Shown here: positions 10,257-48,905 of the stretch, in pieces
How the letters are laid out: each line of letters opens with the position of its first letter
Position numbering within the stretch: position 1 is the stretch's first letter
Position numbers and translations under genes: made by a program
Notes under the pieces: model-generated
The model's database searches: none
Seen by the model: only the letters and a program-made list of their open reading frames with translations
Told to the model about the DNA's origin: nothing
Virus record (IMG/VR): IMGVR_UViG_3300043449_002191
Coordinates: 93,342 to 157,341 of that record
Length of the DNA: 64,000 nucleotides
From: a virus
Reading direction: 5' to 3' (one strand)

Positions 10257-11211
10257 TCCATACTCCTTCAAAGTCAATCACACCTCTAGCGTAAGCGGTA
10301 ACCTTACCTGCAAAAAAATCTTGCATTTCTACGCCATTACTTAAAACGTCAAACCATTGTAATCGGTCTAGGGCAGTTTTGTCAATATTTTTCCAATTAG
10401 ACTTTAAGCCAAGCTCATGAAGCTTAGTATTAGCCCTATATCGCATATAGTTCTTAAGATCGCTTTCTGTTAAATTAGGAAGATCACCTTTTTCAAAGGC
10501 TTTTTCAATAAATGCATCTTCTAGCTCAATTGTAAGTCTAGCCGCATCGTAAATTTCTTTTTTTAGCTCATCTGTCCAGATTTCAGGGTTTTCCTTAATA
10601 AACTCCCTAAAAAGCCAGCAGCCAGCATTGCTATGCAAAGATTCGTCTCTAATAGACCAGCTAACAATTTGGCCTACGCCCTTAAGGTAATTCCTTTGAG
10701 AAAAGGACATTAAGATAGCAAAGGAGCTGAATAAGCTGACACCTTCATTAAAGGCAGAGAATACAGCCATTGACTTAGCCAAATCTACTTTATTCTTAGA
10801 TTTCATAGACATTAGCCTGTCAATTTTGCTTTTTGTTGTAGGTTCATGCAAAAAGGCTTCATAATTATCTAGACCAAGAGTATCATTAAGATACGCATAT
10901 CCGGCAATATGTATTGTCTCAAATGAGGAAAACGTATTAGCCATCATCTGAATTTCAGGCTTTTTGAATCGGTTAGCAATAACATTTGTCCAATAATCAG
11001 AAATAATGACCTCGGCTTGAGTAAATCCTTTTAAGATCGACCCAATGACGTGTCTGTCAGTGTCAGATAGATTAATTTTCCAATCATTTACATCCGAAGC
11101 CATTTGAACTTCGGTGTGAAGCCAATGAGATTGCTGGGCCTTTAACCAGTAATCGTAAGCTTGAGGATATTCGAACGGCCTATAGATTGGTCTAGGTGTA
11201 AGTAGTCCCAA
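10249..11211 (-). CDS. nrdB: ribonucleotide reductase class I beta subunit
   Basis: ETIHxxGY, EGVSLFSSF, RDESLH, DFF C-terminus. Confidence 0.95.
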   Translation of the reverse strand: MGLLTPRPIYRPFEYPQAYDYWLKAQQSHWLHTEVQMASDVNDWKINLSDTDRHVIGSILKGFTQAEVIISDYWTNVIANRFKKPEIQMMANTFSSFETIHIAGYAYLNDTLGLDNYEAFLHEPTTKSKIDRLMSMKSKNKVDLAKSMAVFSAFNEGVSLFSSFAILMSFSQRNYLKGVGQIVSWSIRDESLHSNAGCWLFREFIKENPEIWTDELKKEIYDAARLTIELEDAFIEKAFEKGDLPNLTESDLKNYMRYRANTKLHELGLKSNWKNIDKTALDRLQWFDVLSNGVEMQDFFAGKVTAYARGVIDFEGVWND

Positions 11212-15818: not shown

Positions 15819-16132
15819 TATTCCTCCAGAGGCAATTGATCAAATCCAGAGCTTTTAATAAACTCTTCAGATGCATCCTTACATATTAAAATTGCAGTTT
15901 CATTCGGCAAATTTAATGTAAGTGCTGATGTACATCCTATAAAAAACCCTAATTGAACATTTTTAGGAATTAAAGCAGAAAGAGCATTTAATCTTTCGTT
16001 TTGATGATTTAAAATAAAAGAGAAAAGCAGCAATAAGACCGCAGTTGTAAATAGGCTTGCCTGTATTTTAGCTTTTTTAATTTCGCTAATATTTTGCCAA
16101 GCATTTTTGATTTTACTTAAAATGTTACTCAT
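15818..16132 (-). CDS. small membrane-anchored protein
   Basis: Hydrophobic LFTTAVLLLLFSFIL segment. Confidence 0.55.
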   Translation of the reverse strand: MSNILSKIKNAWQNISEIKKAKIQASLFTTAVLLLLFSFILNHQNERLNALSALIPKNVQLGFFIGCTSALTLNLPNETAILICKDASEEFIKSSGFDQLPLEE

Positions 16133-17906
16133 TTTCTACCGATCCTCTCTGCCCTGTAGCAGCTTCGAATTGTCTTACAAACTTTTCTTCTTGTTTATCT
16201 GAATCATTATCCCTCTTAAAGGCAACAATACCGCCAAGCGTTCCAAGTAAGGATGCGATTGAAATACTGTTTCTAATAGCTTCAAGTACTGCTGGCGCAG
16301 AATCTAATAAGTCATATGCTGGAACCCATTTTTCTGCTGACAGGTCATAGGTTAACGAATCATCCTTTAAAATGTTGTAAATCTGAGTTAGAATTTCTTC
16401 TGGCACATACCCATAGTTTCTATATAAAGCCTTAACAGGATGAAGCAAGGATTCGCCTAAAATAAGAGCTGCAAGCTTTTTAGGCCAATTATCTGTAATC
16501 TTTTCTGCTCTTACTGTAAGCTCGGCAGCAATTCTTGTAAGAATATACCCACCACCTGGAACAGCACCATGCTTTAAGGCTCCTTTAATCGCCATCCAAG
16601 CGTCCTCAGCTCTATCACGCTTTTCTCTTGTTTCTCCAGACGATGGTCCAGAGATATTGAGTCTTACAATTCCAGCAGTAAGTTTACCAATTCTAACTTC
16701 CAAATCATTTAATTCGTAAATGCTTTCTGGCTTTTCTTTTTGCAGTTTAAGTTCTTCGACTCTGATAGAAATAGCTTCTGGGTCTTCATCAGCAAAAACC
16801 ATTGTTTTATATCGTGATACATCAATTTTCTTAACCCTGGAATTATTGCATACAAATTGTGGGTTAATATCAACAATTGGCCTGTCAATTGGATTAAACA
16901 CTGGAGTTCCAGTATAAGCCTGCAAGTCATACAGGAAATTAGTTCTCCAGTTCTGGATGGCCTTTTCAGGAGTCATTAAAGGTAGGATTTTAACTTTAGA
17001 GTGGGGATGGTTCCAGTTTACGTGCAAGTCTCCAAGAACGATTTCAGAAAATCCATGGGCCACTAATACAATGTTTTTATCCTGTCTGTTTGTCTCATCA
17101 AAATATTCAGAAAGCTTTGTAAATGCTTCAAAAACTTGCGACATATCATTAATGTTACCGTCAAACAGGATCACAATTGGATTGTTTAATTCAACTCCAT
17201 TACCACTCTTATTATTAATAAAGCCATTGGAAAAATTCCTACAAGATTCTTCATATCCACGTTCTACGGTATACCCATTGATTCGCTCAACGATATATTT
17301 TGATGGACCTTGCATTTCTACAATAGTCATGTTCCCTTCTTCTCCGACAAGCTCAAGACCTTCAATAATTGCGTCTGAAAGCTCTAAATCACCATTTCCA
17401 GATAAAGAAGCTACTTTATGTAAAACCTCTTTATAATTATCCCCGTTAATCTTAAGCTTATATTTTTCTACAATCTCTTCCATTACAGGTACAAGCTTTT
17501 CCATTTCCCTAACGATCTTCTGAGGGCTAAGTCTTGGGTTATTTTTTGTGGCATCAGATGTATATTCTGCAATTGCGCTCGAAAGGATTGTTGCTGTAGT
17601 AGTTCCGTCCCCAGCTTCATTTGCAGTTCTAATAGCAGCATCCCTTGCCGCCTCAAGGATAAGCTGTTTAGTAGCTTCTTCATATCCAAGATTTTTAACA
17701 ACAGTCACGCCGTCTTTTGTAATAATTGGCTTCATGTTAACTTCGGAGCGTTCGATCAAAACTTGACGACCACCTGGACCTAAAGTAGCTCCTACCATTT
17801 CAGCAATGTGAGATAGCGTTTTCACAACTTCATCCTGAAGCTTAGTGCTAGATGGAATCATTACTTTTGCTGCAGATTTTGGTTTACCTACTTGAAACAG
17901 ACTCAT
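16125..17906 (-). CDS. groEL: chaperonin GroEL
   Basis: TLGPGG, ITKDGVTV, AGDGTTTAT, EDA, VPGGG; start 17906 with AAGGAG. Confidence 0.93.
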   Translation of the reverse strand: MSLFQVGKPKSAAKVMIPSSTKLQDEVVKTLSHIAEMVGATLGPGGRQVLIERSEVNMKPIITKDGVTVVKNLGYEEATKQLILEAARDAAIRTANEAGDGTTTATILSSAIAEYTSDATKNNPRLSPQKIVREMEKLVPVMEEIVEKYKLKINGDNYKEVLHKVASLSGNGDLELSDAIIEGLELVGEEGNMTIVEMQGPSKYIVERINGYTVERGYEESCRNFSNGFINNKSGNGVELNNPIVILFDGNINDMSQVFEAFTKLSEYFDETNRQDKNIVLVAHGFSEIVLGDLHVNWNHPHSKVKILPLMTPEKAIQNWRTNFLYDLQAYTGTPVFNPIDRPIVDINPQFVCNNSRVKKIDVSRYKTMVFADEDPEAISIRVEELKLQKEKPESIYELNDLEVRIGKLTAGIVRLNISGPSSGETREKRDRAEDAWMAIKGALKHGAVPGGGYILTRIAAELTVRAEKITDNWPKKLAALILGESLLHPVKALYRNYGYVPEEILTQIYNILKDDSLTYDLSAEKWVPAYDLLDSAPAVLEAIRNSISIASLLGTLGGIVAFKRDNDSDKQEEKFVRQFEAATGQRGSVENE

Positions 17907-19212
17907 TATATGCTCCTTCATAATAATCAGTTTTACCGAACTCTATGTTTTTAAATTCTTTTAAAAATTGTTTAGCCTGCTCTTTTAACCAGAGTCTATC
18001 CTGCCTTACTGTTTCAGAGTTTGCTATCTTACTTAACTCGCTATGCAAGAATTTGAACACCTGATAAATCTTGCCAGTTTCATGCTGCTCAAAAACCTCT
18101 TTAACAGTGGCTCCAAAATGCATTTTAATTACGTTTGGTATCATATGGCCAAACTTCTGTATAGCCTGCATCCTAATGTAAAGCTTTGGATTAGTATATT
18201 TACAGAGATCGTAGTTACCATTTGCTACAGGTCTAGCTTTAGGGATATATTCCACCTGTTTTACAGATTCGCCATTCTTAAATATATATTTAACCTTTCT
18301 AACCACATTTGCATAGGCAACTTTGCTAGCTTTTCTTTTCTTCCATACAGCAAGCTCTCTTTTGTATCCAAGAACCTTTAATCCGTCATTACCTTTGGTT
18401 CCGTACTCTCTTTCGTTAACCCACTTAGGGTACATATCTATAAACCATCGGTCAACTAATCCAAGTTCTCCAATTTCCATAAGCTCGTACATATCGCCAG
18501 TTTTGATTTTTTCAATCTGTTTAGATGCATTTTTAATGGCTAGACTTTTTAAATATTCTGATTCGTCTAAACCTATAAAATCAAAGCTCATTCTTTTTAA
18601 TGAAAATGGGGTGTGATTAATAAAAGGCAAGTCTTTTTGCTTAACTTCATTTCCACCATTTAAAGCAAGGCCAAGCCAAACTCTAATAATTCTATCCGAA
18701 GTACACCCACGCTTTCTGTTGTCAAACTTTTTTACGCTTGGTTTTGTAACAATATAAGATGCAATAAAGCCTTTTTTTTCTAAATCAGCAATAATATTAG
18801 TAACTTGTCTGCCAGATATTTTTAATATTTCAGCTATACGATTGTTGTTGATTTTTGTAAGGCCAGAATTCTGAAGGCTTCGTGCTAAAAGAATCCCATA
18901 TACACGTCTATGGTTTTTATGCTTTTCTGTTGGGTATACTGCTGTTATTAATGGAATTTTGCCTGCTGATGGAACTTCTGTTTTTTTACATTCATTTGAT
19001 AAGATGACTCCAGCAGTATTATCTGAGAAGATGTCACTTACAAACTTGTTTTTTGGAGCTACAGTTTTAATAACTTTAACCCTATGCTTAATACCAACTT
19101 CATTTGTTCGATCTTCCCACTTAGAATCCAGGTAGACTTCTGAACTTAATTCAAAATCCTCTCGACTAAGACCAATGGCTACGTTTTTATACTGGTAAAC
19201 AAATGATTTCAT
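17884..19212 (-). CDS. winged-helix DNA-binding protein (possible initiator or regulator)
   Basis: NNNRIAEILKISGRQVTNIIADLEKKGFI wHTH pattern; likely leaderless start at 19212. Confidence 0.55.
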   Translation of the reverse strand: MKSFVYQYKNVAIGLSREDFELSSEVYLDSKWEDRTNEVGIKHRVKVIKTVAPKNKFVSDIFSDNTAGVILSNECKKTEVPSAGKIPLITAVYPTEKHKNHRRVYGILLARSLQNSGLTKINNNRIAEILKISGRQVTNIIADLEKKGFIASYIVTKPSVKKFDNRKRGCTSDRIIRVWLGLALNGGNEVKQKDLPFINHTPFSLKRMSFDFIGLDESEYLKSLAIKNASKQIEKIKTGDMYELMEIGELGLVDRWFIDMYPKWVNEREYGTKGNDGLKVLGYKRELAVWKKRKASKVAYANVVRKVKYIFKNGESVKQVEYIPKARPVANGNYDLCKYTNPKLYIRMQAIQKFGHMIPNVIKMHFGATVKEVFEQHETGKIYQVFKFLHSELSKIANSETVRQDRLWLKEQAKQFLKEFKNIEFGKTDYYEGAYNESVSSR

Positions 19213-27125: not shown

Positions 27126-29210
27126 ATGGCTAAAGATAACGAAAAGAAACAGCCGATTTTAGCATTAGATCCAGTCTCATATAATATGCTCAAAAAACAA
27201 GAGCAAGATGAGATTGAATCTGCTAGTGCAAAAACAGAAAAAACTGAAGCTCAAGAAAAGTCAGTTCTCGGCATGATTCTAAAGTCACTTCAAAGTCAAG
27301 CTGCCCAACAAGTCGATAGGATGGCCTTTGAGGTTGATCCATTAAATCATAATACTAATACAGCAAACTTTTATAAAGTAAAAACTAATCTTACCCCAGA
27401 TCACGTCATTAAAAAGCTTATTGGTCCAAGTGGGGATGAATTAGTTTCACAAATTCTACAAGCAAGAGCAAACCACATCTCCGCTTTTGGTAGACCTAGA
27501 ACGGATAGATTTTCTACAGGCTTTGATTTTGTCGATATGGATAAAAATGCCATTAGGACAGAAGAAGAGCAAAAAGCTTTACAGGAAAGAGTAGAAAAAG
27601 CCAGAGCATTTCTTTGGAAATGCGGCTTAGAAAAACTTGATACTGAAGCTGATCAGCCTAATTTAAGTCAAATACTCAAACAAGTTGTCAGAGATGGTAT
27701 TGCTTACGGAAGGCTCGCAGTAGAACATTTATACGGAGCAGACCCTAAAACTGGTAAAAAAGTTTATTACGGCTTTAGACCTGTTGACGCCGGAACTGTC
27801 TATAAGATTTTACCTAAACGTGAACAAGACCAGACTTTAAGGGCTCAAGCCGTATCTATTTTAGCTGGTCTTAAAAACGAAAAAATCAGCGTAGAAAAAT
27901 ACAAAAAAGACGAATACAGATACGTTCAAGTTATTGACGGTAAACCTGTCCAAGCATTTGCAGAAGAAGAACTTTCGCTATACAATCTTTATCCTGTCAC
28001 AAACGTAGAATACAATGGCTATCCGCTAACTCCAATTGACCAAGCTTTAAATGCAATCATGACTCACATCAATATTGCAATGCACAATAAGCTGTACTTC
28101 CAAAACGGAAGAGCAGCCAAAGGGATGCTTATTTTTAAATCTGACAGTATAGATGAGTCAACTGTACAGAAGATTAGACTTCAATTCCATCAGTCAATTA
28201 ACTCAGTTCAGAATTCCTGGAGAATGCCAGTATTTGCAGTTGGTGCAGAAGATGACGTACAATTTTCTTCAATAGATACTCAAGGTCGTGACGCAGAGTT
28301 TCAATATTTAATGGATAACAATGCCAGGGTAATCCTTTCGTCTTTCCAAATGTCCCCAGAAGAATTACCTGGGTATGCTCACCTTGCAAGAGGTACTAAC
28401 ACACAGGCTCTTTCAGAATCTGATAATGAATGGAAGCTTACTGCAGCCCGTGATGTAGGTTTACGTCCACTAGTTCTTGATATTCAAGATTTCTTAAATA
28501 ATCATATTTTACCTAAAATTGATGCAGAGTTAGCTAAAACCCACCAAATTGTTTTGGCTGGATTAGAAAAAGATAGTCCAGAAAAAGAAGCTACTAGATT
28601 GCAGCAAGATATGCCTATTCATATGACCTACAATGAGGTCTTGGAATACGTAGAAAAGAATTTGTTAGACAAGTCAGTTGGTGGAGACTTCCCATTAAAC
28701 CCACAGTACCAAGCTATTATCAGTCAATATCTTACAGTAGGTCAAATATTAGAAAGCTTTTTTGGCGTTAAAGACGCATCTAAAGACCCACGTTATCAGT
28801 ACGTAAGAGACCCTTTCTGGTTCCAAAACCAGCAAATTTTATTACAAAAAGCTCAAGTTGCTATGCAGCAACAAATGATGGTTGAGCAACAAATGCAACA
28901 ACAAATGATGGCACAACAACAAGCTGCTATGGGCCAAGATCCTAATGCTCCACAAGAAGGCCAAGATCAATCTTTACCACCACAACAAGGTTCAAATCCA
29001 CAAGATAATATGCAGAAAAATTCTGAATGGGCTATAGCAAATTATCAAGTAATGGAAAAGGCTATTAAAAACAACCACAATTCCATTTCAAAAATGCTCC
29101 TAAATAGACATTCGCAAATGGTAGATAAGCATTTATCTAAATGGTCCGAAGACTCCAAAAAAGCCCTAAAAGAGCTAGAAAAGGTCTTAAAAGATAAGAA
29201 AGAGGACTAA
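27126..29210 (+). CDS. portal protein
   Basis: RPVDAGT, YVQVIDG, GYPLTP, YFQNG, DAEF, SPEEL patterns; position; Gln-rich tail. Confidence 0.88.
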   Translation: MAKDNEKKQPILALDPVSYNMLKKQEQDEIESASAKTEKTEAQEKSVLGMILKSLQSQAAQQVDRMAFEVDPLNHNTNTANFYKVKTNLTPDHVIKKLIGPSGDELVSQILQARANHISAFGRPRTDRFSTGFDFVDMDKNAIRTEEEQKALQERVEKARAFLWKCGLEKLDTEADQPNLSQILKQVVRDGIAYGRLAVEHLYGADPKTGKKVYYGFRPVDAGTVYKILPKREQDQTLRAQAVSILAGLKNEKISVEKYKKDEYRYVQVIDGKPVQAFAEEELSLYNLYPVTNVEYNGYPLTPIDQALNAIMTHINIAMHNKLYFQNGRAAKGMLIFKSDSIDESTVQKIRLQFHQSINSVQNSWRMPVFAVGAEDDVQFSSIDTQGRDAEFQYLMDNNARVILSSFQMSPEELPGYAHLARGTNTQALSESDNEWKLTAARDVGLRPLVLDIQDFLNNHILPKIDAELAKTHQIVLAGLEKDSPEKEATRLQQDMPIHMTYNEVLEYVEKNLLDKSVGGDFPLNPQYQAIISQYLTVGQILESFFGVKDASKDPRYQYVRDPFWFQNQQILLQKAQVAMQQQMMVEQQMQQQMMAQQQAAMGQDPNAPQEGQDQSLPPQQGSNPQDNMQKNSEWAIANYQVMEKAIKNNHNSISKMLLNRHSQMVDKHLSKWSEDSKKALKELEKVLKDKKED

Positions 29211-30125: not shown

Positions 30126-31832
30126 ATGTCACTGAAAATCGATGGTATTGCCGCATCATCTGCTTTAGATAGTTCTGGTGAAATACTGGAAATAGAAGGC
30201 TTAGATATCTCCGATTTTATCGAAGGTCGTGGTGTACTTAACTGGGAGCATGATAATAAGCATGAAAATACAGTTGGTGCCATAGTCTATGCTAAAAAGA
30301 TTTTACAAAAATCTGACTGCGAAAATGATCGTCAACGTAGGTATTGGGACTCAGTAAAAAAGCCTTTTGTGTATATAATCGGCGAACTTTTTGATGACGA
30401 AGATCATCCAGGCGCAATTGCTATTGCAGCTATGATCAGATATTATTCTAAAAAATCAGAAAAAATGCTAGTTGGCTTTTCAATTGAAGGTTCTACTCTA
30501 GAACGTGATGGCAATATGCTTAAACAGGCTATTGCTAGGCGCTGCGCTATTACCATTAAACCTGCCAATAAAACTGCTATTGCCGACATCTATGAAGATG
30601 AAAAAGTCAAAAAGCTTATGAATGACATGGAAAAATCCCAATCAGACGTACAGCTATTTGAAGTAGACTCTTTTACATTAGAAGATAAAGAAGTTCCATA
30701 TTCCCCATACATGGAAATCCATAAGGCTATTGAAGATCTAAACAAAACATTGACTGCAGGCATGGGTAATGTAGCTCCAAGCCAGTTAGTAGGTGGAGCA
30801 GCTTTAGTTCGTGAGCAATTAAGCGGAACTCAAAAAAATAAGGTAAAAGCCGCCCTAAGAGACTGGGATAAAAGAACGCCCTTAAAACAAGTAATTAAAA
30901 ATGTATTGCCAGAAATTGGCGATAAATATGTAGAACATTTTACTGATTTAGCCGAAGACTTGATGCTTAAAAAATCTATGCAAAATCCAGCAGTTAGATT
31001 ATCATCTAAGCATGGGCATACTCCTCTCCATCCAGAGCAAAACGAATTAATTGAAGGTCTTCAAGTTACACAAGACTTAGATAAAATGCCAGTATTTAAA
31101 CCAAAACACGACCTTTACGGTTCCGCTATATATAAAGGTAAAAACGACAAAGGTCAAACAGTTTTAATTAAAAGCCCAGAAAAAGATAAACCAGAAGACT
31201 TACACAACTTTGCTCAAAAAGCTTCTATGTACCATGGAATAGCAAAAAGCGTTTTTGGTCTTGGCGACAATGTGCCTGAAACAGCAGCATTTAAACATGA
31301 AAGCTTAAAAAACTCAAATAAACATCATGGAGATTGGTTCCAAGCTATTGAGCATAAAAAGGACACTAAGACTCCATTGGAAGACCAAAAAGGGTATAAC
31401 GCCGTTATTGCTACACCTGAAGGTCAAGATAAGCTTTCAAAGCTATTGATAATGGACCATATTTTAGGTGGTAGAGATAGACACGCCGGAAATATTTTAT
31501 TTGATAAAAAAGGCGAGCTGCACCTTATCGATAATGATAGATCTTTTGATCATTACGACTCAGACTTTTTACCTTCAGAAACACACGAAGAAATAATGCC
31601 TGAAAATGGATTTTTAATTTCCGATGATACCGCAAATTGGATTAAAAAAGTTGACCCAAAAATTTTACTTAAGACTATGCTAGACCATGGTATACACCAT
31701 GATACCGCAAAAAAATCCATTTTGAAGCTAAAAGCTTATCAAAAAATGGCAAAAAAGGGATATAATATTAAAGATTTAATAGATAAAGCTCATATGTCTG
31801 TGAGTGCTGCACCCAAGGAAAAGGTTAAGTAA
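30126..31832 (+). CDS. prohead protease fused to a capsid-arm copy and a HipA/PI3-4K-like kinase
   Basis: N-terminal GIAAS..LDSSGE, NWEH, GFSIEG, AITIKPAN (HK97-type protease); C-terminal DHILGGRDRHAGNIL...LIDND. Confidence 0.85.
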   Translation: MSLKIDGIAASSALDSSGEILEIEGLDISDFIEGRGVLNWEHDNKHENTVGAIVYAKKILQKSDCENDRQRRYWDSVKKPFVYIIGELFDDEDHPGAIAIAAMIRYYSKKSEKMLVGFSIEGSTLERDGNMLKQAIARRCAITIKPANKTAIADIYEDEKVKKLMNDMEKSQSDVQLFEVDSFTLEDKEVPYSPYMEIHKAIEDLNKTLTAGMGNVAPSQLVGGAALVREQLSGTQKNKVKAALRDWDKRTPLKQVIKNVLPEIGDKYVEHFTDLAEDLMLKKSMQNPAVRLSSKHGHTPLHPEQNELIEGLQVTQDLDKMPVFKPKHDLYGSAIYKGKNDKGQTVLIKSPEKDKPEDLHNFAQKASMYHGIAKSVFGLGDNVPETAAFKHESLKNSNKHHGDWFQAIEHKKDTKTPLEDQKGYNAVIATPEGQDKLSKLLIMDHILGGRDRHAGNILFDKKGELHLIDNDRSFDHYDSDFLPSETHEEIMPENGFLISDDTANWIKKVDPKILLKTMLDHGIHHDTAKKSILKLKAYQKMAKKGYNIKDLIDKAHMSVSAAPKEKVK

Positions 31833-32437
31833 TGAAAGTCTATGTCATTAAAAGCGTAAACTCAGACATCCCCTTGGCTGAAATCAGAACTGATGGCAGA
31901 TCTGTTGATTTTATTGTAGATAATACTGAAGGCCAACTTCCATCAAAAGTGGGCAATAGCCTAGAAGCGCTTAAAAAATACCTAAAGTCTTCTAGTATCT
32001 ACTTAGAAGAACCAACTCAGCCTACAGCACATTTAATCAGATACGTTCTATCAAACGGAGATGTTGCTGAAATCACTACTGACGGTAAAACCTGCCTTTT
32101 AAATGGTAACCTGCTAACTGAGCAAGAAAAATATGCTCTATTTGATGCTATTAAAAGAAAAGAAATTCAAGTATCTAGAAAATCTGATGATATACAACCA
32201 GTTTTACCTAAAGCGCAAAAGCCTTTAGAGGAAATTAAGCCAAAACAACTGCACCCTACTATTCAATCTCAAATGAAAGAATACTTTGAAGAAAAAAGAA
32301 AGCAATTGGAAAAATCAACACCAGATATGGATCATGAGATTGAAGATTCTGTGGCTAAGATGGCCGGAGACAGACAAGAAGTAGGCTTTGTAAGGGACCT
32401 TTTGTATTGGTTAAAGCACGGAGGCAATCGTGAATAA
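31832..32437 (+). CDS. hypothetical head-module protein
   Basis: ORF coupled to the protease gene. Confidence 0.6.
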   Translation: MKVYVIKSVNSDIPLAEIRTDGRSVDFIVDNTEGQLPSKVGNSLEALKKYLKSSSIYLEEPTQPTAHLIRYVLSNGDVAEITTDGKTCLLNGNLLTEQEKYALFDAIKRKEIQVSRKSDDIQPVLPKAQKPLEEIKPKQLHPTIQSQMKEYFEEKRKQLEKSTPDMDHEIEDSVAKMAGDRQEVGFVRDLLYWLKHGGNRE

Positions 32438-35400
32438 GACTTTTTTTGACGAAAACACCTCTCCACAAGAGCTTGAATCTACAATAAATCAATATATTGA
32501 TACACCAAAAGATAGTCACCCAGAAGACTTATCAGAAAAGGTATATGAAGCTGCCGCACATCCTCAAATGCCAGCAGCGCATTTATCTAAACTTTACCTT
32601 CATAACATGGCAAAACCAGAAAATACTCCAGAAAATATAGGCAGCCATGAAAGTATAGACTCAGATTTAACTGAAAAAATACTGCAAAATCTAAATACAC
32701 CTAAAGATATACATGAGCAGCACCTTGCAGCTACTCATTCTTCTAATAGCGAGCATCATAACTATGCTATTTCAAATCCTGCAGTATCTAATGATGTTAT
32801 TCAGTCATTTTTAGAAAATAGAGCAAAATCGGAATCTGCTTGGAATATGCCAGCAGAAGAAAATGTCCATCCCGATGTTGGGTTTAATCTATTTAATAAA
32901 GGCCGTGAACTTAAAGACATTGATCCAAAGCATTCAGAAGCACTTAAAGAATATGGATTAGATATTCTACAAAATTCTAAAAAACATACAGACGAAACAT
33001 TAAAGAGAGTAGTAGATGCTTATCATAAAGGCCAGCCATTAAATAGCGGCTTTTTGGGCAATCTTATCTCAAAAAATAAAAATTTGACAAAAGACCAGTT
33101 AAATCAAATTCACAATAAGCATACATCATCTGAAGAGTTTGATCCTGATTATGGTAGCAGTGTTATTTCTTCTATAGCAGAGCATCCTAATACTGATCCA
33201 TCATTACTATCACTAATCGCTAACGATAAAAAGTATAAAAACCATGCATCTGATGCTTTAAAAAATCCTGCGCTTCCTATGGAAGTATTCAATAATAAAA
33301 TTTCAAAATTACCTAAAAGAGGAAATGAACATTACGATCATAATGATGAAATTACTGAATCTTTACTGCAAAATCCAAATATAACAAAAGACCAAGTGTC
33401 AGAACTTTTTAAAAAAGGGTTTAAATCAGCGTTAAATCATGAAAAAACTGATGAGTCATTAATTGAAAATCATTGGAATAGCTCTGACAAAAGCGCAGAT
33501 GCTGCGAATAAAATTTTGCGAACAAAAAACTTGCCTGAAAGTGTCTTAAAAGAGCTTGTTAATCATAAAAATCAAGACGTAGCAATTGAAGCGTTAAATC
33601 ATAAGAATGCTACAGAAAACGTAGTAAATGAAGGTTTAAAAAGAAAAGCTAAAGCAGTACAAGAAGAGGCAGCTAAGCACCCTCTTGTAAAAGATAGAGC
33701 TATTACTGAAAAGCTAAAAAATAAATCAGTAAACGCCTCTACTATAGCTTCTGATAATGATTATAAAGAAAAGTTTGATAAACTTTCCGATTTGGATAAA
33801 TCTAATCTAATTAACCACTTCCATGAAAAGCTCTCAGGCTCAGACATTGATGCAATTGCTAAGAATTCAAAAGAAAAGAAGTCTGATGTATTATTGGCAA
33901 AAAGATTCTTAGCTAGGGATAAAAGTGTACCACAACACATCAAAGACCATCATTCAGATGAGTTTTTTGATATGTTTACTAAAGAATTTGGAACTAATTC
34001 AGATATAAACGTAGATAGAGATGATTTACACAAAAGGCAGTTATTCCAAACCGCAAGAGACCTTTTATCAGATGAAAATCCAACAGCGCAGAAAAGATTG
34101 CTAGAGCATACACCTTTGATGTCAGCGTTAGGCCCTGATGTGGCATCTAAATCTAAAAATCCTGATTTTATTAAAAAGCTAGTCAAAAGAGCTAAAGACG
34201 CTGATGGTGAATCAATAATAGATCGCTGGGGGCACCCAAGACCATATAATTCGTCTGACTTAAGATTATCTGTATTAAAAAATCCAAATCTAAGCCTAGA
34301 AGATCTTAAAGGTCACTTGTCCGACCCGTCTTTTAATGATTTTGATAAATATGCTTTGAATAATATTATGGATAAAACAAAAGGTTCCCCAGAAAAACAA
34401 GCAGAAACACTAAGTTTTTTAAAAAATTTAAACAGACCAGAAGTAAACAAACACCTGCTGTTAGGCAGTTTTTTGACTGGAAATGACCAAGAATCAGCAT
34501 TTGAAAACTTAGAGTCAAAATACGATAAAAGTGAATTTTTAAAGGAAAATGCAGACAAAATTTCTCCATCGTTAGCTGACAGAATTTTAAGTGGCGAATT
34601 TAATGATAATTACACACAAATGAAACATAATCTTTTTAGTGGATTAGAAAATCCCCCTAAAGAAATTGAAGATAAAGTTTTAAATCATTTAGACGAACTT
34701 TCTAAAGGCCCTGTAGCCGATTTAACTGATTCGTTAAACAGTATCTCTAATAGTTTTAAAAAATCTGAAAGATGGAAAAATAACGCTAAAGAGCTGTCAG
34801 CATCAAATCCAACTTTAGCTTCTCAAATGTATTCTCATCATATTGATGTGCTGCCAGCAGAAAAACAAAAAGATGCGATTAGCAACCTTGAAGCTTATGA
34901 AGATTCATTGGGCGTAAGTCCAGAACAAAAAGATATGAGAAAAAAAGCTTTTTGGAAAGCTCAATTGCTAAATATAAATAGGTTAGGTAGAGTATTTGAA
35001 AAAGGAGAATTAGATCATTTAGCAGATCTGCAGAGTACAGATGAAGACGAAACCGCTCTTTCTATCAAATCCCTTTTATTAAACAAACGATTATTGTCAG
35101 ATAACAAAGCTAGCGAAATAGTAGCCAAAGACCCTTCTTTATTTGAAGATTATTATAACTCATTACATAAAATAGATGATAAAATTAAATCTATTGATAG
35201 CGTAATAAATAATCCTAATTCAGATAAAAACTTGCTTTTTAAAGCTGTAGGCAAAATAAATCCTACACATTTATCAGAATATAAAATTGATAAAGATAAC
35301 CAAAATGAAGTTGCAAAGAAATTAGCCAATAAAATTGCTGATTTAAGTAAACTTCAAGATCAAAAACACTTACAGACAGCAGTTCAGGGGCTTACACGCC

Positions 35401-38400
35401 CTATTAAAGGGCATTTAACTGAGGGTGTTTCTGAATCTTTAATTAAAAAAGCTGCCGATGAAATCTTAAAAAACGATAAAATACCCCAAGATAAAAAAGT
35501 AAGAATGTTGTCAGCAGTTTCTTCTGCTATGGATGTCAAAGGGGTAACACATCAAGCAACTTCTAAATTTTTAACTAAGGCTGTATCTGAATCAGAAGAT
35601 GTCAATACACTGCTACCTGCTATCCAGTCTTCTACATTTGATTTTGCAACAAAAACTTCTATGGCTAAAAAAGCAAATGAAATGCTATCAAACCCAGAAG
35701 CTATAGCTAAAGTTGATACCCAAAAATTGCTAGACTTTACTACTAATGCAAACTGTACGGCAGAAGTTAAAACTTTGGTAGCTAACAAAGCAACTGAAGA
35801 ACTTTTTCAAGAACAAGACCTTGATAAACAAGTAGAAAAAGCTGAGAAATTAGCATCAGCGCTAAACTACTCATCAAACGATAGCAGCTTTAATTCTGAC
35901 GCTAGAATTTACCATTTAGCCGAACATCCAAATCCAGAAGTAAGAATGGTCGCCTATAAACAAATGAGATCCACTCTTTCTTCAAACGGAATAGAAAGCA
36001 ACATTGAACTATACAAGAATATGCCAGATGATATTAAGCTTCATCCAATTGATATTGATCAAAATGAAGCAAATAATGCTGATTTTGTAGAAGCATCGAC
36101 TAAAGGCTGGAAATTAGATACATTAATTGTTAATGGTGGAGTTTTAAACAAAGAAAACTCAAAAGTAATGATTAATAGAGCTATTGAGTCCGAAGATCCT
36201 GCCCATAAAAGATTGGCACTTCAATCTTTAATGTCATCTGTGTATACAGACAAAAATGACCTAACTAAACTTGCCAGAGCATCTAGCGAAGAAGACCTAC
36301 TAAAGTCTCTTTCAATAGTCCAAAATCCATTCCAACTAAATGCACATTTTGCTTTATCTGAATTGATGGATAAAGTAGATCAAAAAATGGAAAATCCAGA
36401 GATGGTAATTCATGGTGCTAAATTTTTAGACAAAGAGCATACAAAAAATGTACTTTCTATCCTAAGCGATATTGCCAGTAATATAGGAAAAACTATATTT
36501 GATGAAGGCACTTACGATATTAACGCAAAAAACGAAGTGTATGAAGAGGTTATTAACAAGCATACGGACCATTCCAATACTATTTTGAATAATCTTAAAA
36601 ACCAAATTTTAGAAGAACCATCTGAAACTAAAGTTAAAGTAAATAGTTTAATCAATAACCTAAGAAATATTGTTGCGAATAGTGGGTTAAAGTTTAGCAA
36701 AGAAACTCACAATAAGCTAATGGAGTCCTATAATTTACATAAAGACCTTTATGAAAAATTGGGTACAAGATTTAACACTCCAGTTCTATTAGGTGGAATT
36801 ATTGAAAAAACAGAAGGATTAAATTCCGAAGATTGGAAATCTCTTTTTGAAAAAACTCCTGAATCCAAATATTTTATTGGACATAGATCATCTATAGGAA
36901 CAGACATTTCAGATCATCTATCTTTTTCTAAAGAGGATCAAAATTGGAGTCATTCACCTGTAGCTGTTCAATTTGCTTTAGATAAACTTGATTCCCAATC
37001 TTTAGATAAGCATGGCAAAAGACTTTTTACCGAGGCTTTAAATGCAACAAATGGAAGTCCTAATCAAAAATATGTTATTGAGACTGGTTTAAGTAAAATG
37101 GGCGATAGGCTTAATCATAAAGACTTATTGGACATAAGAAAAGCTTTACCAGAGTTTAGTCAACATTTTGATACCGTAGCTATTAAATCTGGTGCAGGCG
37201 GAAAAGAGCTTTTAGCCGATTCAGTCAAAAAAGTGGAAGAACTTGCTAAAAACAAAGAACAATCTAGCGTTGAGCTTTTATCTGCAATATGCAGAAGTCG
37301 CCACTTAGACGAAAATCTAGCAAATAAAATGTTGGAAATTCATGATAATCACCCAGAAGTAATGGAAGAACTCGCTAACAATAACTCAGTTCACCCTAAC
37401 GTATTGCTTAAAATTCAAAACGAAGCCGCTAAATTGTCACCAAGAACATCTAAAAAGATTGTGGACGCAGTTATTTCAAACTCAAATACTCCATTTGATG
37501 TTGTTAAAAAGGCATTTGAAACTACTCAAAAAGAGTATAAACCATATTTCATGAGCAATACTTCATTTAACCCTGCGCTAGATAACTCTAAATGGGGACC
37601 TAGCCTATTAAGAGAAATGCCAGTAGTCTTACCTGAAGGGCTTCAAAACGTAGATGGGAACTCTTTAAAGCAAAAAACTTCAGAATTTTCTACCGAGTAT
37701 TCAAATAAACGTAAAAAAGCCCTTAATGTAATGGCAGCTATACCTGATACTGGTATTAACTGGGTTGAATTTAAGCGACAAAATCCGTCACTAGAGGCTG
37801 GATTACCAAAAGAAGTTAAAGATATTTTTACTAGAAATGCTAACACTCCAATAACAAAAGAGAATATGGTATCTCTGGTAAAATCTATGGATTCAGAGCA
37901 AAAGAAAAGAGAGTACCACTTAGCGTATTCATCTTGGAGTGGGGTACAAACTCATACTGGAGGCAAAAATCTTGTTATGACTTTAAATCTATCTCAGCAA
38001 ACTGAAGAAGAGCTTAAAAAAGACCCCAAAGTATTTGCTTTATATAAAAAAGTTACTCAAATTGCAAATGGAATATCTGGTAAATCTATAGGAGCGCACC
38101 CAACAACACCATATGCTGTATCTTGGTCTAGAGTTGATACTGATCAAAACGGTGAAGCCTGGGTAATTGAAGAGCTTCAAGCAGATGCTGTACAAAAATT
38201 TAGATCTAATTTCAGAAGAATACTCAACAATATGGCCTCTGGGTCAAATATTGATGGCCATAGTATAACTTCAGAAGAAATGAAATCAATGGTTAAGACT
38301 ATTGAAAAAACTTTTGATGGATGGGACCGAGCTACTATAAATGCAGTTATAGAAAATGCAAAGGCTCATGGAATTAAAAAGCTTTATATGCACGGTCTTG

Positions 38401-38636
38401 GAATCAGAAGCTGTATGTCTGGTGGAGAAATCGGCGGTCCCAAATACACTAAAGACTATATTAACCCAAATATTAAAAGGCTTTATGACCAATTGCCTCA
38501 AGAGTATGGTTTTTCAAAGTGTAAATACTCAGATTACCCCAAAAATAACGCAAAAAGATTCAACGATGATCTTAAGAGCAGAGAATTAAATGATGATTGT
38601 TGGGTACTTGACTTAGAGGAGAAGCCTAAAGCCTAA
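32430..38636 (+). CDS. giant 2068-aa helical-repeat polyvalent-type protein
   Basis: Degenerate [LI]A.[HN]PN.P repeats; C-terminal globular domain with WSRV...WVIEELQAD...AKAHGIKKLY; GTG start with GGAGG. Confidence 0.7.
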   Translation: MNKTFFDENTSPQELESTINQYIDTPKDSHPEDLSEKVYEAAAHPQMPAAHLSKLYLHNMAKPENTPENIGSHESIDSDLTEKILQNLNTPKDIHEQHLAATHSSNSEHHNYAISNPAVSNDVIQSFLENRAKSESAWNMPAEENVHPDVGFNLFNKGRELKDIDPKHSEALKEYGLDILQNSKKHTDETLKRVVDAYHKGQPLNSGFLGNLISKNKNLTKDQLNQIHNKHTSSEEFDPDYGSSVISSIAEHPNTDPSLLSLIANDKKYKNHASDALKNPALPMEVFNNKISKLPKRGNEHYDHNDEITESLLQNPNITKDQVSELFKKGFKSALNHEKTDESLIENHWNSSDKSADAANKILRTKNLPESVLKELVNHKNQDVAIEALNHKNATENVVNEGLKRKAKAVQEEAAKHPLVKDRAITEKLKNKSVNASTIASDNDYKEKFDKLSDLDKSNLINHFHEKLSGSDIDAIAKNSKEKKSDVLLAKRFLARDKSVPQHIKDHHSDEFFDMFTKEFGTNSDINVDRDDLHKRQLFQTARDLLSDENPTAQKRLLEHTPLMSALGPDVASKSKNPDFIKKLVKRAKDADGESIIDRWGHPRPYNSSDLRLSVLKNPNLSLEDLKGHLSDPSFNDFDKYALNNIMDKTKGSPEKQAETLSFLKNLNRPEVNKHLLLGSFLTGNDQESAFENLESKYDKSEFLKENADKISPSLADRILSGEFNDNYTQMKHNLFSGLENPPKEIEDKVLNHLDELSKGPVADLTDSLNSISNSFKKSERWKNNAKELSASNPTLASQMYSHHIDVLPAEKQKDAISNLEAYEDSLGVSPEQKDMRKKAFWKAQLLNINRLGRVFEKGELDHLADLQSTDEDETALSIKSLLLNKRLLSDNKASEIVAKDPSLFEDYYNSLHKIDDKIKSIDSVINNPNSDKNLLFKAVGKINPTHLSEYKIDKDNQNEVAKKLANKIADLSKLQDQKHLQTAVQGLTRPIKGHLTEGVSESLIKKAADEILKNDKIPQDKKVRMLSAVSSAMDVKGVTHQATSKFLTKAVSESEDVNTLLPAIQSSTFDFATKTSMAKKANEMLSNPEAIAKVDTQKLLDFTTNANCTAEVKTLVANKATEELFQEQDLDKQVEKAEKLASALNYSSNDSSFNSDARIYHLAEHPNPEVRMVAYKQMRSTLSSNGIESNIELYKNMPDDIKLHPIDIDQNEANNADFVEASTKGWKLDTLIVNGGVLNKENSKVMINRAIESEDPAHKRLALQSLMSSVYTDKNDLTKLARASSEEDLLKSLSIVQNPFQLNAHFALSELMDKVDQKMENPEMVIHGAKFLDKEHTKNVLSILSDIASNIGKTIFDEGTYDINAKNEVYEEVINKHTDHSNTILNNLKNQILEEPSETKVKVNSLINNLRNIVANSGLKFSKETHNKLMESYNLHKDLYEKLGTRFNTPVLLGGIIEKTEGLNSEDWKSLFEKTPESKYFIGHRSSIGTDISDHLSFSKEDQNWSHSPVAVQFALDKLDSQSLDKHGKRLFTEALNATNGSPNQKYVIETGLSKMGDRLNHKDLLDIRKALPEFSQHFDTVAIKSGAGGKELLADSVKKVEELAKNKEQSSVELLSAICRSRHLDENLANKMLEIHDNHPEVMEELANNNSVHPNVLLKIQNEAAKLSPRTSKKIVDAVISNSNTPFDVVKKAFETTQKEYKPYFMSNTSFNPALDNSKWGPSLLREMPVVLPEGLQNVDGNSLKQKTSEFSTEYSNKRKKALNVMAAIPDTGINWVEFKRQNPSLEAGLPKEVKDIFTRNANTPITKENMVSLVKSMDSEQKKREYHLAYSSWSGVQTHTGGKNLVMTLNLSQQTEEELKKDPKVFALYKKVTQIANGISGKSIGAHPTTPYAVSWSRVDTDQNGEAWVIEELQADAVQKFRSNFRRILNNMASGSNIDGHSITSEEMKSMVKTIEKTFDGWDRATINAVIENAKAHGIKKLYMHGLGIRSCMSGGEIGGPKYTKDYINPNIKRLYDQLPQEYGFSKCKYSDYPKNNAKRFNDDLKSRELNDDCWVLDLEEKPKA

Positions 38637-39722: not shown

Positions 39723-40589
39723 ATGAATCAGCTATATACAGATCAAGACTTGGATGCTATCATTGCTTCTGTCGAAGAGGCTTTGTCTAAGGCTGAAGTA
39801 TTGGCAAAATCTTCTCTCAGAAAAGATGGCCAAGAAGACGAAGAGCAAGAGCAAGAAGCTCCTGCTGCTGATCAAGCTCCCGAAATGCAAGAGCAAGCCC
39901 CTGCTCCTGATGCTCAAATGGATGAGCAACAAGCACAGGCCCCATCCGAAGAAGCTCCTGAAGAAGCACCTGCTCAAGATGAGCAAGCTGCCCCTGAAGA
40001 AGCACCTGCTCAAGATGAGCAGATGGATGAAGCTCAAGCCGATCAATCACTAGAGCAAGAAGCTCAAGGCGACGAGGACCAAGCCCTTACGGATGAGGAA
40101 TTGGCTCAGATTTATGGAAGTATGGACCCACAGGAATTGGAGCGCCATTATTCTGTTATCCGCCAAATGATTGAACAAGCTTATGCAAAAGCGGAAGCTG
40201 ATGAGTCCGAAGAGGATGAATCCAAGGAAGAAGAAGAAAAAGAAGAAGATGAAAAAGACGAAAAAGAGAGCATGGAAAAGTCAGAAAAGATTTCTGCTTT
40301 AGAAAAGCAAATCGCTGACCAGAACAAAGCTCTTGAAAATATTGCAAAAGCGTTTGAAATTATTGCAAAACCTCAACGCAAAGCAGTTACTGAAATCGAT
40401 TTCATCAGAAAATCAGAAGCCGAAAGCTCTGATAAAACAATGACATTGGAAGAAGTTAAAGCTAAAGCTAATAAACTTGCTCCAGCGTCACTCACCAAGT
40501 CTGAAAGAGATCAAGTGAACTCTTTTATGCTTTACGGTGAAGGAAAAGAACAAATTGAAAAACTAATTAAGTCTAAGGGAGGAAACTAA
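39723..40589 (+). CDS. capsid scaffolding protein
   Basis: Acidic Glu/Gln/Ala-rich, directly before the major capsid; many xxK-S/A sites. Confidence 0.75.
   Translation: MNQLYTDQDLDAIIASVEEALSKAEVLAKSSLRKDGQEDEEQEQEAPAADQAPEMQEQAPAPDAQMDEQQAQAPSEEAPEEAPAQDEQAAPEEAPAQDEQMDEAQADQSLEQEAQGDEDQALTDEELAQIYGSMDPQELERHYSVIRQMIEQAYAKAEADESEEDESKEEEEKEEDEKDEKESMEKSEKISALEKQIADQNKALENIAKAFEIIAKPQRKAVTEIDFIRKSEAESSDKTMTLEEVKAKANKLAPASLTKSERDQVNSFMLYGEGKEQIEKLIKSKGGN
39957..40021 (+). repeat. 36-bp-period in-frame tandem duplication (PEEAPAQDEQ)
   Basis: CCTGAAGAAGCACCTGCTCAAGATGAGCA at 39957 and 39993. Confidence 0.85.
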
Positions 40590-40590
40590 A

Positions 40591-41979
40591 ATGAATGACC
40601 TAGTAAAAACACTAGAAACATTAGTTAAGACCTTGGAAGCAGGTAACTATAACGTAGCTCCTAGTCAGCTCGTCCAAGGTTCTGCTCTCCAGATCGAAAA
40701 CTTGGAATCTGTCATGCACAACACTACGTTTGATGACAGTCACATCAAGCTTCAGAAGCTTTTTTCTGTAAAGAAAGCTAAGAGCTTGCTTGTGCAATTT
40801 AACCGTCAATTGTCTTATGGACGTTTTGGCGGATCTGCTCAGCGTGAAGGCGCTGTAGGTGACATCAATGTTGGCGACTACGTTCGTGCGACTGTCCCTA
40901 TGTGCTTCTACTCTGCAGTAACACGTGTAACAGTTGCTGCCAATATGATGGAAACCATCGATGGCAAAAAAGCTGAAGACCGTGAAGCAGATAACATTGC
41001 AATGAAAATTGCAGGGGACATCGAATTTGACTCCTTTAAAGGTAAGTCAGATTTCTCTAACGCAGGGGTATTCGATGGAAACCCTCTTGCTATGCCAGAG
41101 CTTCCTAGTATGCTTGGTGTTGACGCTCAAATCCGTCAATCGGATATGATCGTTTCTACTCAAGATCTTATGTTTGCAGCTTTTGGTTCAAATCAAAGTG
41201 TTGTTCTTTCTAAGAACGGCGCTCTTGATCAACCACACATCGAAGACCTTGCTCTTCGCAGCCGCATGAACATGGGTAAAGCTGAAACTCTTTTTATTGA
41301 CCCTGTTGTTCTTTCTGGATACAACAAGGCAGTTGCCCTTGGATCAGGATCTAACGCTATTCAACGTATCGTTTTAGCTGGTTCTGCTCAAGACGCTTCT
41401 GGAGCTGATCTTCGTCGTCAATGGGTTTCTAACGGAACTGTGACTCTTGAAGATTCTCGTTTCCTTTCTGGAAAAACTGCTCCTCAACGTCCTATGATCG
41501 GTTCACCTGCTGCTCCTGCTACTGTTGCTGGAACTGCAGCTCCAGGCGGAATTATCCCTGCTGGCGATCATGTTTACGTAGTTACTGCTGAAAACGAAAG
41601 AGGCGAAGGCGTTGCTAAAGCTTCTGCTGCTGTAACAGTTGCTGCTGGTGAAAAAGTTGATCTTGTTATCGCTGGTGTTGCTGGCGCTACTCATTACAAC
41701 GTATACCGTGGCGCTTCTGCTGCTTCTGCTAAGTTTATCGGTCGTGTTAAAGCTGATGGTGCTGCAAGTGTTACTTTTGTTGACCTTGGAAACAAAGCTC
41801 CAGCTTTCGTAACTGGTTACCTTATCCAAAAAGATACTTGGGGATTCCATGAGCTTGCTCCATACTCTCGTATGAAGCTTGCTATCAGCGATTTATCAGT
41901 TCCTGAAGCTCACTTCAGATTCTTGTCTCTTGCTGGATATCAACCACGTAAGAACGTTATCTCTGATAACTTGTTCTAA
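40591..41979 (+). CDS. major capsid protein (Herelleviridae-like, with Ig-like insertion)
   Basis: N-arm K-TLEAG...P...GSALQIENL; position after scaffold; insertion YVVTAENERGEG...YNVYRG; followed by a terminator. Confidence 0.88.
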   Translation: MNDLVKTLETLVKTLEAGNYNVAPSQLVQGSALQIENLESVMHNTTFDDSHIKLQKLFSVKKAKSLLVQFNRQLSYGRFGGSAQREGAVGDINVGDYVRATVPMCFYSAVTRVTVAANMMETIDGKKAEDREADNIAMKIAGDIEFDSFKGKSDFSNAGVFDGNPLAMPELPSMLGVDAQIRQSDMIVSTQDLMFAAFGSNQSVVLSKNGALDQPHIEDLALRSRMNMGKAETLFIDPVVLSGYNKAVALGSGSNAIQRIVLAGSAQDASGADLRRQWVSNGTVTLEDSRFLSGKTAPQRPMIGSPAAPATVAGTAAPGGIIPAGDHVYVVTAENERGEGVAKASAAVTVAAGEKVDLVIAGVAGATHYNVYRGASAASAKFIGRVKADGAASVTFVDLGNKAPAFVTGYLIQKDTWGFHELAPYSRMKLAISDLSVPEAHFRFLSLAGYQPRKNVISDNLF

Positions 41980-48293: not shown

Positions 48294-48905
48294 ATGAAAA
48301 AAATGCAAAGAGACGATATAGATAAATTTTTTGATTACGAGATTTATTTACCCACCAGGACTTTGTATATGGGTTCGGCGTCTTATGACGAAGAAAATGG
48401 CGAATCTGGCACTGATGGTGCTATGGCCGAAAGAATTATCAAAGGGCTTCACATTTTAGACTCTTCCGCACCTTCAAATGATCAACCTATTACTATTATA
48501 ATGAACAATCCAGGTGGTGATGAATATCATGGGATGGCTATTTACGATGCAATAAAGTCTTGTAAAAATCATGTTACAATCAAAGTTATCGGTCATGCCA
48601 TGTCTATGGGCTCTATTATTTTACAAGCTGCAGACCATAGGGTTATGTCTCCTAATTCACGAATGATGATTCACTACGGAACTAAGAGTATTCAAGATCA
48701 CGCTAAAAACTTCTACAAATGGACGGACGAAGGTAAGAAATTTGACTCCTGGATGGAGCATCTATTTTTAGAAAAAATCAGAGAAAAGAATCCGCATTTT
48801 ACTTTAGCTAAAGTAAAACATATGTGCAATTTTGACACCTTTCTATCGGCAACAGAGGCTATTCAGTTGGGGCTTGCTGATAAAATATTAGGAGAAGATG
48901 AATGA
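48294..48905 (+). CDS. clpP: ClpP protease proteolytic subunit
   Basis: NNPGG, AMSMG, MMIH, DTFLSATEAIQLGLAD. Confidence 0.9.
   Translation: MKKMQRDDIDKFFDYEIYLPTRTLYMGSASYDEENGESGTDGAMAERIIKGLHILDSSAPSNDQPITIIMNNPGGDEYHGMAIYDAIKSCKNHVTIKVIGHAMSMGSIILQAADHRVMSPNSRMMIHYGTKSIQDHAKNFYKWTDEGKKFDSWMEHLFLEKIREKNPHFTLAKVKHMCNFDTFLSATEAIQLGLADKILGEDE

Follow-up and report, generated by a model that had tools for sequence, protein, structure and literature searches.

[quoted passage not shown] The question is raised by one open reading frame in a viral DNA of 64,000 nucleotides (positions 93,342 to 157,341 of IMG/VR record IMGVR_UViG_3300043449_002191). This whole stretch is called the window here, and all unprefixed coordinates are positions in it. 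The head module of the window has the order terminase, portal, protease fusion ORF, three further ORFs, probable scaffold, and major capsid protein (MCP). The features on which the argument depends are as follows (an arrow marks a cleavage site):

27126..29210, plus strand: portal protein, by family matches
30126..31832, plus strand: protease-arm-kinase fusion ORF of 568 aa, with about 100 full-length homolog clusters
30126..30605, plus strand: prohead protease domain, aa 1-160 (phrog_1028, E 1.7e-12; pLDDT mostly >90)
30249-30251 and 30480-30482, plus strand: putative catalytic H42 and S119
30705..30746, plus strand: helix, aa 194-207, ending in L205-x-K207, with a predicted cut K207↓T208; it parallels the propeptide helix of the MCP
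30747..30824, plus strand: copy of the mature MCP N-arm, aa 208-233, a low-confidence coil in the single-chain model
30825..30974, plus strand: helical bundle of the structure model, aa 234-283, ending in L281-x-K283, with a predicted second cut K283↓S284 (K283 in 102/102 homologs)
30984..31805, plus strand: kinase domain of the PI4K/HipA fold, aa 287-560 (PF00454, Foldseek, Atlas)
39723..40589, plus strand: probable scaffold, acidic, with five Leu/Met-x-Lys↓Ser/Ala sites and no arm copy, positioned as SPO1 gp3.3
40591..41979, plus strand: major capsid protein, HK97 fold, SPO1/phage K type (phrog_752, E 4.9e-34)
40621..40707, plus strand: predicted MCP cut L11-x-K13↓T14, by conservation, and the N-arm, aa 14-39, the template of the copy

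The single-chain structure model of the fusion protein, built from 102 homologs (mean pLDDT 86.7), has the protease at residues 1-160, a helix at 194-210, a low-confidence coil at 211-229, a bundle at 234-286, and the kinase at approximately 287-560. By its sequence, the protein belongs both to the phrog_1028 protease family and to the PI3/4K-like superfamily. The N-terminal domain matched the phrog_1028 head maturation protease in a profile search and gave tblastn matches in 212 phage records, mostly of Herelleviridae; none of the Pfam peptidase models matched it in the Pfam search. H42 and S119, putatively the catalytic His followed by the catalytic Ser, are invariant in the 102 homologs, as are K207, P218 and K283. 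The residue after K207 is T, A or S in 102/102 of these proteins, and the one after K283 is G, S, N, A or T in 101/102.

The MCP model resembles the SPO1 capsid structure 9VEL (Foldseek E 7e-30, TM 0.71), and PHROG, tblastn and Foldseek matches place an SPO1/K-type head module in the window. Among cultured phages, the unclassified Myxococcus phage Mx1 is the nearest relative, and the MCP shares only about 30% identity with that of SPO1, over one third of its length; for these reasons, placement in Herelleviridae was not adopted. Across 110 MCPs, L11, K13, G18, P24 and G30 are invariant. The K13↓T14 site aligns with K24↓S25 of phage K, and PDB chain 9ROW begins exactly at S25, so that the copy in the protease begins at the homologous maturation site. 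This agrees with the preliminary description of the locus, in which cleavage between Lys and Thr was proposed to yield a fragment with a capsid-like N-terminus. By homology to the phage K site, the protease would act on the MCP precursor. In the models, the counterpart of protease helix 194-210 is MCP helix 2-16, and sequence identity between the propeptide helices is 3/11 here, at most 6/11 in close relatives, and 0-2/11 in distant ones.

Several other genes of the window deserve mention. A mostly helical, repeat-like protein of 2068 aa is encoded within the head module (32430-38636, plus strand); its C-terminal globular part has an IEELQAD motif, and Pfam and PHROG searches found no family match for it. 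Two ClpP-like protease ORFs are found on the plus strand besides the prohead protease, of which 49466-50233 matches ClpP-type PHROGs and 48294-48905 is ClpP-like by eye. The minus strand encodes a DnaE-type DNA polymerase (183-3782), the large subunit of ribonucleotide reductase (8529-10277) and a chaperonin (16125-17921). A scan for tRNAs found none; promoter-like sites were fewer than expected from shuffling, and the promoter and terminator scans were uninformative.

Residues 205-227 of the protease (30738-30806) and 11-33 of the MCP (40621-40689) are identical at 17 of 23 positions, exactly as first noticed. When the window was searched in six frames, this match had E=1.8e-8 and the runner-up E=0.29; its alignment score is 91, against a maximum of 50 among 200 shuffles, and it extends to 22/42 residues (protease 197-238, MCP 3-44). 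At the nucleotide level, 41/69 positions of the arms agree, and the codons differ for 11 of the 17 identical residues. In 40 genomes, codon usage predicts 283 shared codons among 659 identical arm residues, and 257 are observed; no exact nucleotide run between the copy and the MCP arm is longer than 14 nt. Shared codons that do not exceed expectation and short exact runs exclude recent recopying, whether by duplication or by gene conversion, and the arm is conserved as protein, as the preliminary description had it.

The same description suggested looking for co-variation of the arm across protease-capsid pairs, and such co-variation was found. Cognate protease and MCP arms have identity of 0.60-0.68 in each of four clades, and protease arms of different clades 0.31-0.43. 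All of the 564 between-clade quartets, which represent six clade contrasts and not 564 independent tests, join the arms by genome rather than by gene. Within-clade permutations gave p = 1e-4, 9e-4, 0.04 and 0.33, but shared ancestry remains in them, and it is the quartet test that carries weight. These values were computed on fixed-length arms, and a tree of 26-residue arms is too short for fine topology. Co-variation without recopying indicates that both segments answer to a shared constraint at the protein level, so that selection keeps the arm; most simply, this constraint may be a common binding partner. One position before a conserved Glu (30810-30812 and 40693-40695), the template and the copy differ, with mostly Ile or Val in the MCP arms of the Mx1-like and SPO1-like clades and mostly Arg or Lys in the protease arms.

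The arm is old and general, and not special to this phage. Of 46 protease-MCP pairs, 44 have the 26-residue copy with a score above the best of 200 shuffles (L056 marginally so); the same shuffle test gave no significant arm in the two others, Bacteroides phage DAC23 and Chryseobacterium phage MA9V-3. The guess that Herelleviridae proteases may have the copy was borne out in 14/14 sampled phages, including SPO1, K, LP-083-2 and Lb338-1. Cargo is absent in these, which rules out the arm as a kinase-specific address. When the SPO1 protease was searched against PDB sequences, the only match was SPO1's own capsid protein (E 2.4e-6). Searches with an arm profile were positive in 163 of 170 complete homologs at E<1e-3, and the arm in this set sits 15-437 residues past the protease domain, behaving as an independent module would. 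No description of an arm copy in such proteases was found in the accessible literature; the copy is real, conserved and apparently undescribed there.

Some homologs depart from the common layout. A 618-aa protease homolog (L001:9931-11784) has no detectable arm or bundle. P0051, which is close to P0014, reads unrelated sequence exactly across the arm (alignment columns 225-260) in the manner of a double frameshift, and is either an assembly error or a natural arm-less variant. In four proteins (L002:10001-10879, L007:9977-11617, L058:9956-10807 and L067:1882-3528), a four-cysteine, zinc-ribbon-like end replaces the bundle after the arm.

Two features between the arm and the kinase had been missed in the preliminary description, namely the helical bundle at 234-283 and the conserved L-x-K↓S site at K283. 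At the end of the bundle, a hydrophobic-x-K-small site is present in 146/154 cargo-bearing homologs (background 19%) versus 1/7 cargo-less ones, a weak contrast, as the cargo-less set comes from two lineages only. The invariance of K283 and the small residue after it predict that the kinase is severed from the arm, which then cannot be a lasting anchor for the kinase. The original proposal, in which the arm docks into the capsid lattice and holds protease and kinase inside the head, is thereby contradicted in its tethering part; the lattice stays as one of three possible partners of the arm, together with the scaffold and the protease itself. Short sites occur elsewhere in the module: the scaffold candidate, which has no family match in Pfam or PHROG searches, has five versus 0.6 expected, and two other module proteins are also enriched in them, with no enrichment in non-structural genes (23 sites versus 26.5 expected). 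With other likely substrates having short sites only, the 26-residue extension exceeds the needs of cutting.

The kinase fusion, singled out earlier as the unusual part of the locus, turned out to be a clade-wide, swappable cargo slot. The complete protease-arm-bundle-kinase layout is found in about 100 clusters, and Mx1 also has the kinase, so the fusion is not unique to this genome. Other homologs have GNAT, His-phosphatase, DUF5661, ParB-like or GGDEF domains, or no cargo. These alternative domains are placed before the arm or after the bundle, and several of the matches are weak, below the Pfam cut-off. In three proteins (L029:9974-13765, L042:9962-13618 and L050:9941-13567), GGDEF stands in place of the kinase at the end of the fusion; in Mx1, a separate 'nucleotide cyclase' gene is located two genes downstream of the protease.

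Similar sites are seen in other plus-strand ORFs of the window. Among the neck genes, 51576-54158 encodes an 860-aa protein whose N-terminal region contains many L-x-K-S sites; such sites also flank its GNAT domain (308-367), and an intact PI3/4K-like kinase (DRHSGN, IDHER), the second in the window, is present. It has nine sites versus 2.3 expected and no arm copy. The existence of this second, arm-less kinase polyprotein suggests that cargo may load without an arm. The product of 56997-58850 (617 aa) has six Leu/Met-x-Lys-Ser/Ala sites versus 2.0 expected and, by eye, a GNAT-looking segment between two K-A sites, and is a probable second processed head protein. A 334-aa protein (54168-55172) has, by eye, a lytic-transglycosylase-looking motif (VESSGG) behind an L-x-K-G site, and no PHROG match.

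The C-terminal domain had been called a HipA/PI3-4K-like kinase. The PI3/4K half of this name is well founded: the domain scores 28.7 bits with the Pfam model PF00454 (PI3_PI4_kinase; cut-off 27.1), the best solved structure in Foldseek is a type II PI4K (PI4KII-alpha, E 1.4e-7, approximately 15% identity), and in the Atlas it is closest to the PF00454 and HipA_2 clusters (TM ~0.62). HipA proper was rejected, as no HipA model matched at E<0.1 and a weak HipA_2 match was seen only in homolog L031. The DRHAGN motif is at D451-N456 and IDND is at D469; K349, D451, N456 and D469 are all intact here and are found together in 75/102 homologs, and kinase activity of this protein is plausible on the strength of these residues. 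Position 366, which corresponds to the helix-C Glu, is Ala here and in 88/138 kinase homologs and Glu in 15, mostly in Mx1-like long fusions. A catalytic residue is missing in 39/138 (28%), and this loss takes about 15 changes on the protease tree versus 32 for shuffled labels; with some 15 separate changes, decay was repeated while the domain stayed. R452 is kept in 136/138.

We think it an even call that the arm and the bundle are a loading tag for the immature head, used at the stage of assembly and not as a lasting tether. The tag would imitate the N-terminus of the capsid precursor and bind its assembly partner (scaffold, or the inside of the MCP shell), and would in this way bring the protease and its fused cargo into the growing prohead. 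At maturation, the protease would cut L-x-K↓small sites in the MCP (K13), in the scaffold, and in itself (K207 and K283); the products would be the released protease, a tag fragment of 76 residues and a separate kinase of about 32 kDa. The kinase, predicted to be too large to leave with the peptides, would remain in the head, from which it may leave together with the DNA to target host proteins. In Mx1-like phages, both flanks of the tag would be slots for variable cargo, and Herelleviridae would have the tag without cargo.

The loading-tag reading is supported by the spread of the arm, its co-variation and independent spacing, its extension beyond the needs of cutting, the K283 site kept with cargo, the start of chain 9ROW, and peptides from virions. 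Scaffolds of other phages touch an MCP N-arm helix inside the procapsid (PMC12749128). In virions of phage Bc431v3, the protease was seen at trace level (emPAI 0.11), with one peptide from the arm (ion score 23) and one from the catalytic domain (PMC3601020), and protease peptides were recovered from purified Herelleviridae virions in further cases (PMC12282133; PMC12977511). Against the tag count this trace level of protease in Bc431v3, the lack of a significant arm in DAC23 and MA9V-3, the repeated decay of the kinase, and the arm-less kinase polyprotein at 51576-54158. A predicted complex of two arm-less MCP copies (41-462) with protease residues 208-283 scored 0.00, which speaks neither for nor against binding.

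The last step, delivery of the kinase, has a competitor of its own, which we entertain tentatively: the kinase may not be a delivered effector at all, and may act in late infection or head assembly or, often, be an inactive internal head protein. This concerns the role of the kinase only and overlaps with the other readings of the arm. D451, N456 or D469 were lost repeatedly with the domain and R452 retained, and in the lineages of those 39 homologs a host-directed enzyme fits poorly; at the position of the helix-C Glu of Mx1-like homologs, moreover, the clade of the window has Ala. On the other hand, 75/102 close homologs, this one included, keep K349, D451, N456 and D469 together, the slot otherwise holds enzymes of the conflict-system type (GNAT, GGDEF, His-phosphatase, ParB-like), and in the Atlas a head morphogenesis protein of 947 aa carries a kinase of similar fold.

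A further possible partner, besides scaffold and shell, is the protease itself. If an exosite of the protease reads the MCP arm, the copy may be an extended recognition segment or decoy, serving as a preferred self-release site or as a timer until the enzyme is concentrated in the prohead. A shared exosite would explain the co-variation equally well, and the conserved cut site marks the exact start of the copy, in Twort-like phages directly at the end of the catalytic domain. [quoted passage not shown] We nevertheless consider this unlikely, in view of the similarity that runs 23-26 residues past the cut, when nothing comparable follows the scaffold and K283 sites, and of the spacer of 15-437 residues; the low-confidence coil of the arm in the single-chain model is a weaker argument in the same direction.

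Rather more doubtful is the retention of the cut arm-bundle fragment as a minor structural protein, occupying MCP N-arm sites of the mature shell, for example those vacated at the portal vertex by the missing pentamer. It is true that the copy corresponds to the mature N-terminus, that the 445 modelled residues of SPO1 capsid chain B equal 468 minus the 23 before the site, which fits an arm ordered in the lattice, and that an arm peptide was found in Bc431v3 virions. In P74-26, the N-arm contacts at the portal vertex take a different arrangement or come from an additional protein (PMC12407722). The virion signal, however, is at trace level and includes the catalytic domain, and the neck paper on phage 812, in its accessible portion, lists portal, adaptor, stopper, terminator and two decoration proteins and mentions no protease fragment. 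The version in which the arm tethers the kinase is the one contradicted by K283. There is a similarly slim chance that two things hold together, i.e., that SPO1-, K- and Mx1-like capsids contain the released arm-bundle fragment as a component overlooked so far, bound to MCP N-arm sites (such as those at the portal vertex), and that in Mx1-like phages this fragment is a modular dock for packaging the PI4K/HipA-fold kinase and other enzymes, which are injected to reprogram or disarm the host as infection begins.

Protease-capsid fusions are a known type, and an ancient protease-MCP fusion could be the origin of the arm, which follows the protease where such a fusion would join. It is nonetheless extremely improbable that the copy survives as a neutral remnant of an old fusion or duplication, kept alike by occasional gene conversion: in 40 genomes, synonymous codons agree no more often than expected from codon usage, and in four deep clades the arm has been retained in step with the MCP.

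How does this arrangement compare with known systems? The Herelleviridae proteases (SPO1 gp3.2, phage K ORF42) belong to the same phrog_1028 family, in the same gene order portal-protease-scaffold-MCP, and have the same arm copy after an x-x-K↓S/A/T site, then a small C-terminal domain; capsid proteins in these phages are processed at K↓S. They are, however, about 250-270 aa long and have no cargo, and the window protein adds the second site and the kinase. The putative prohead protease of Mx1 (WNM70322.1, 1239 aa) is 44% identical over the first 245 aa, the MCPs being 54.5% identical, and likewise has the arm, the bundle and a C-terminal kinase. It differs in having approximately 700 extra residues between bundle and kinase, and is annotated as protease only.

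A C-terminal tail takes the maturation protease into the procapsid, before a cut frees it, in the herpesvirus assemblin precursor (UL26 type) and lambda C/Nu3, and HK97 gp4 has a C-terminal incorporation segment. In herpesviruses and lambda, the protease tail is the scaffold, made from an overlapping in-frame gene, whereas here the tail is a separately encoded mimic of the capsid protein. A protease-scaffold precursor of the UL26 or lambda C type was rejected, as the scaffold candidate is a separate gene without arm or bundle and the tail matches the MCP. The fold and catalytic motifs of the kinase are common to type II PI4K, HipA-like and SCO1664-type kinases (PF00454, PF20613); PI4KII, however, is only about 15% identical, and the window protein has no HipA match in Pfam.

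In T4, phiKZ and SPN3US, propeptides direct internal head proteins, a short consensus site is found on capsid, portal, cargo and the protease's own C-terminal propeptide, and cargo is left in the head after cleavage; the protease and the site (A-X-E) are different from those discussed here, and the accessible part of that source mentions no capsid-arm copy (PMC10052503). The polyvalent proteins of Iyer et al. 2017 have variable enzymatic domains on a virion-linked carrier and are predicted to be packaged, processed and delivered (PMC5512222). They and the MuF- and portal-fused effectors resemble the proteins studied here in carrying variable enzymes on a virion-linked carrier, and variable multi-domain effector architectures in the context of virion genes are present across our homologs as well. 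In polyvalent proteins, however, the assemblin-like peptidase is C-terminal and the kinases lack the C-terminal subdomain (PMC5512222), whereas here the head protease is the N-terminal carrier, the PI4K/HipA fold is full, with a helical C-lobe, and there is a capsid-arm copy. Membership in the described polyvalent proteins or in their kinase clade is ruled out by the N-terminal peptidase and the complete C-lobe.

A separately encoded capsid mimic that co-evolves on the protease was not found in the accessible literature, and may still have been mentioned before. Protease tails and head cargo were known already; the proposed targeting of the protease by a capsid mimic, combined with a variable cargo slot, appears to be a new variation on them. 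The way in which the protease enters the prohead when the scaffold is a separate protein is poorly resolved, and a co-evolving mimic in SPO1 and K, which are model and therapeutic phages, would be a precise answer. If the loading tag is true, natural fusions with up to ~950 extra residues suggest a ready-made route for packaging chosen proteins. With the kinase, the known phage effectors would gain a virion-borne enzyme of the PI4K/HipA fold, and the fusion is available in a cultured phage, Mx1.
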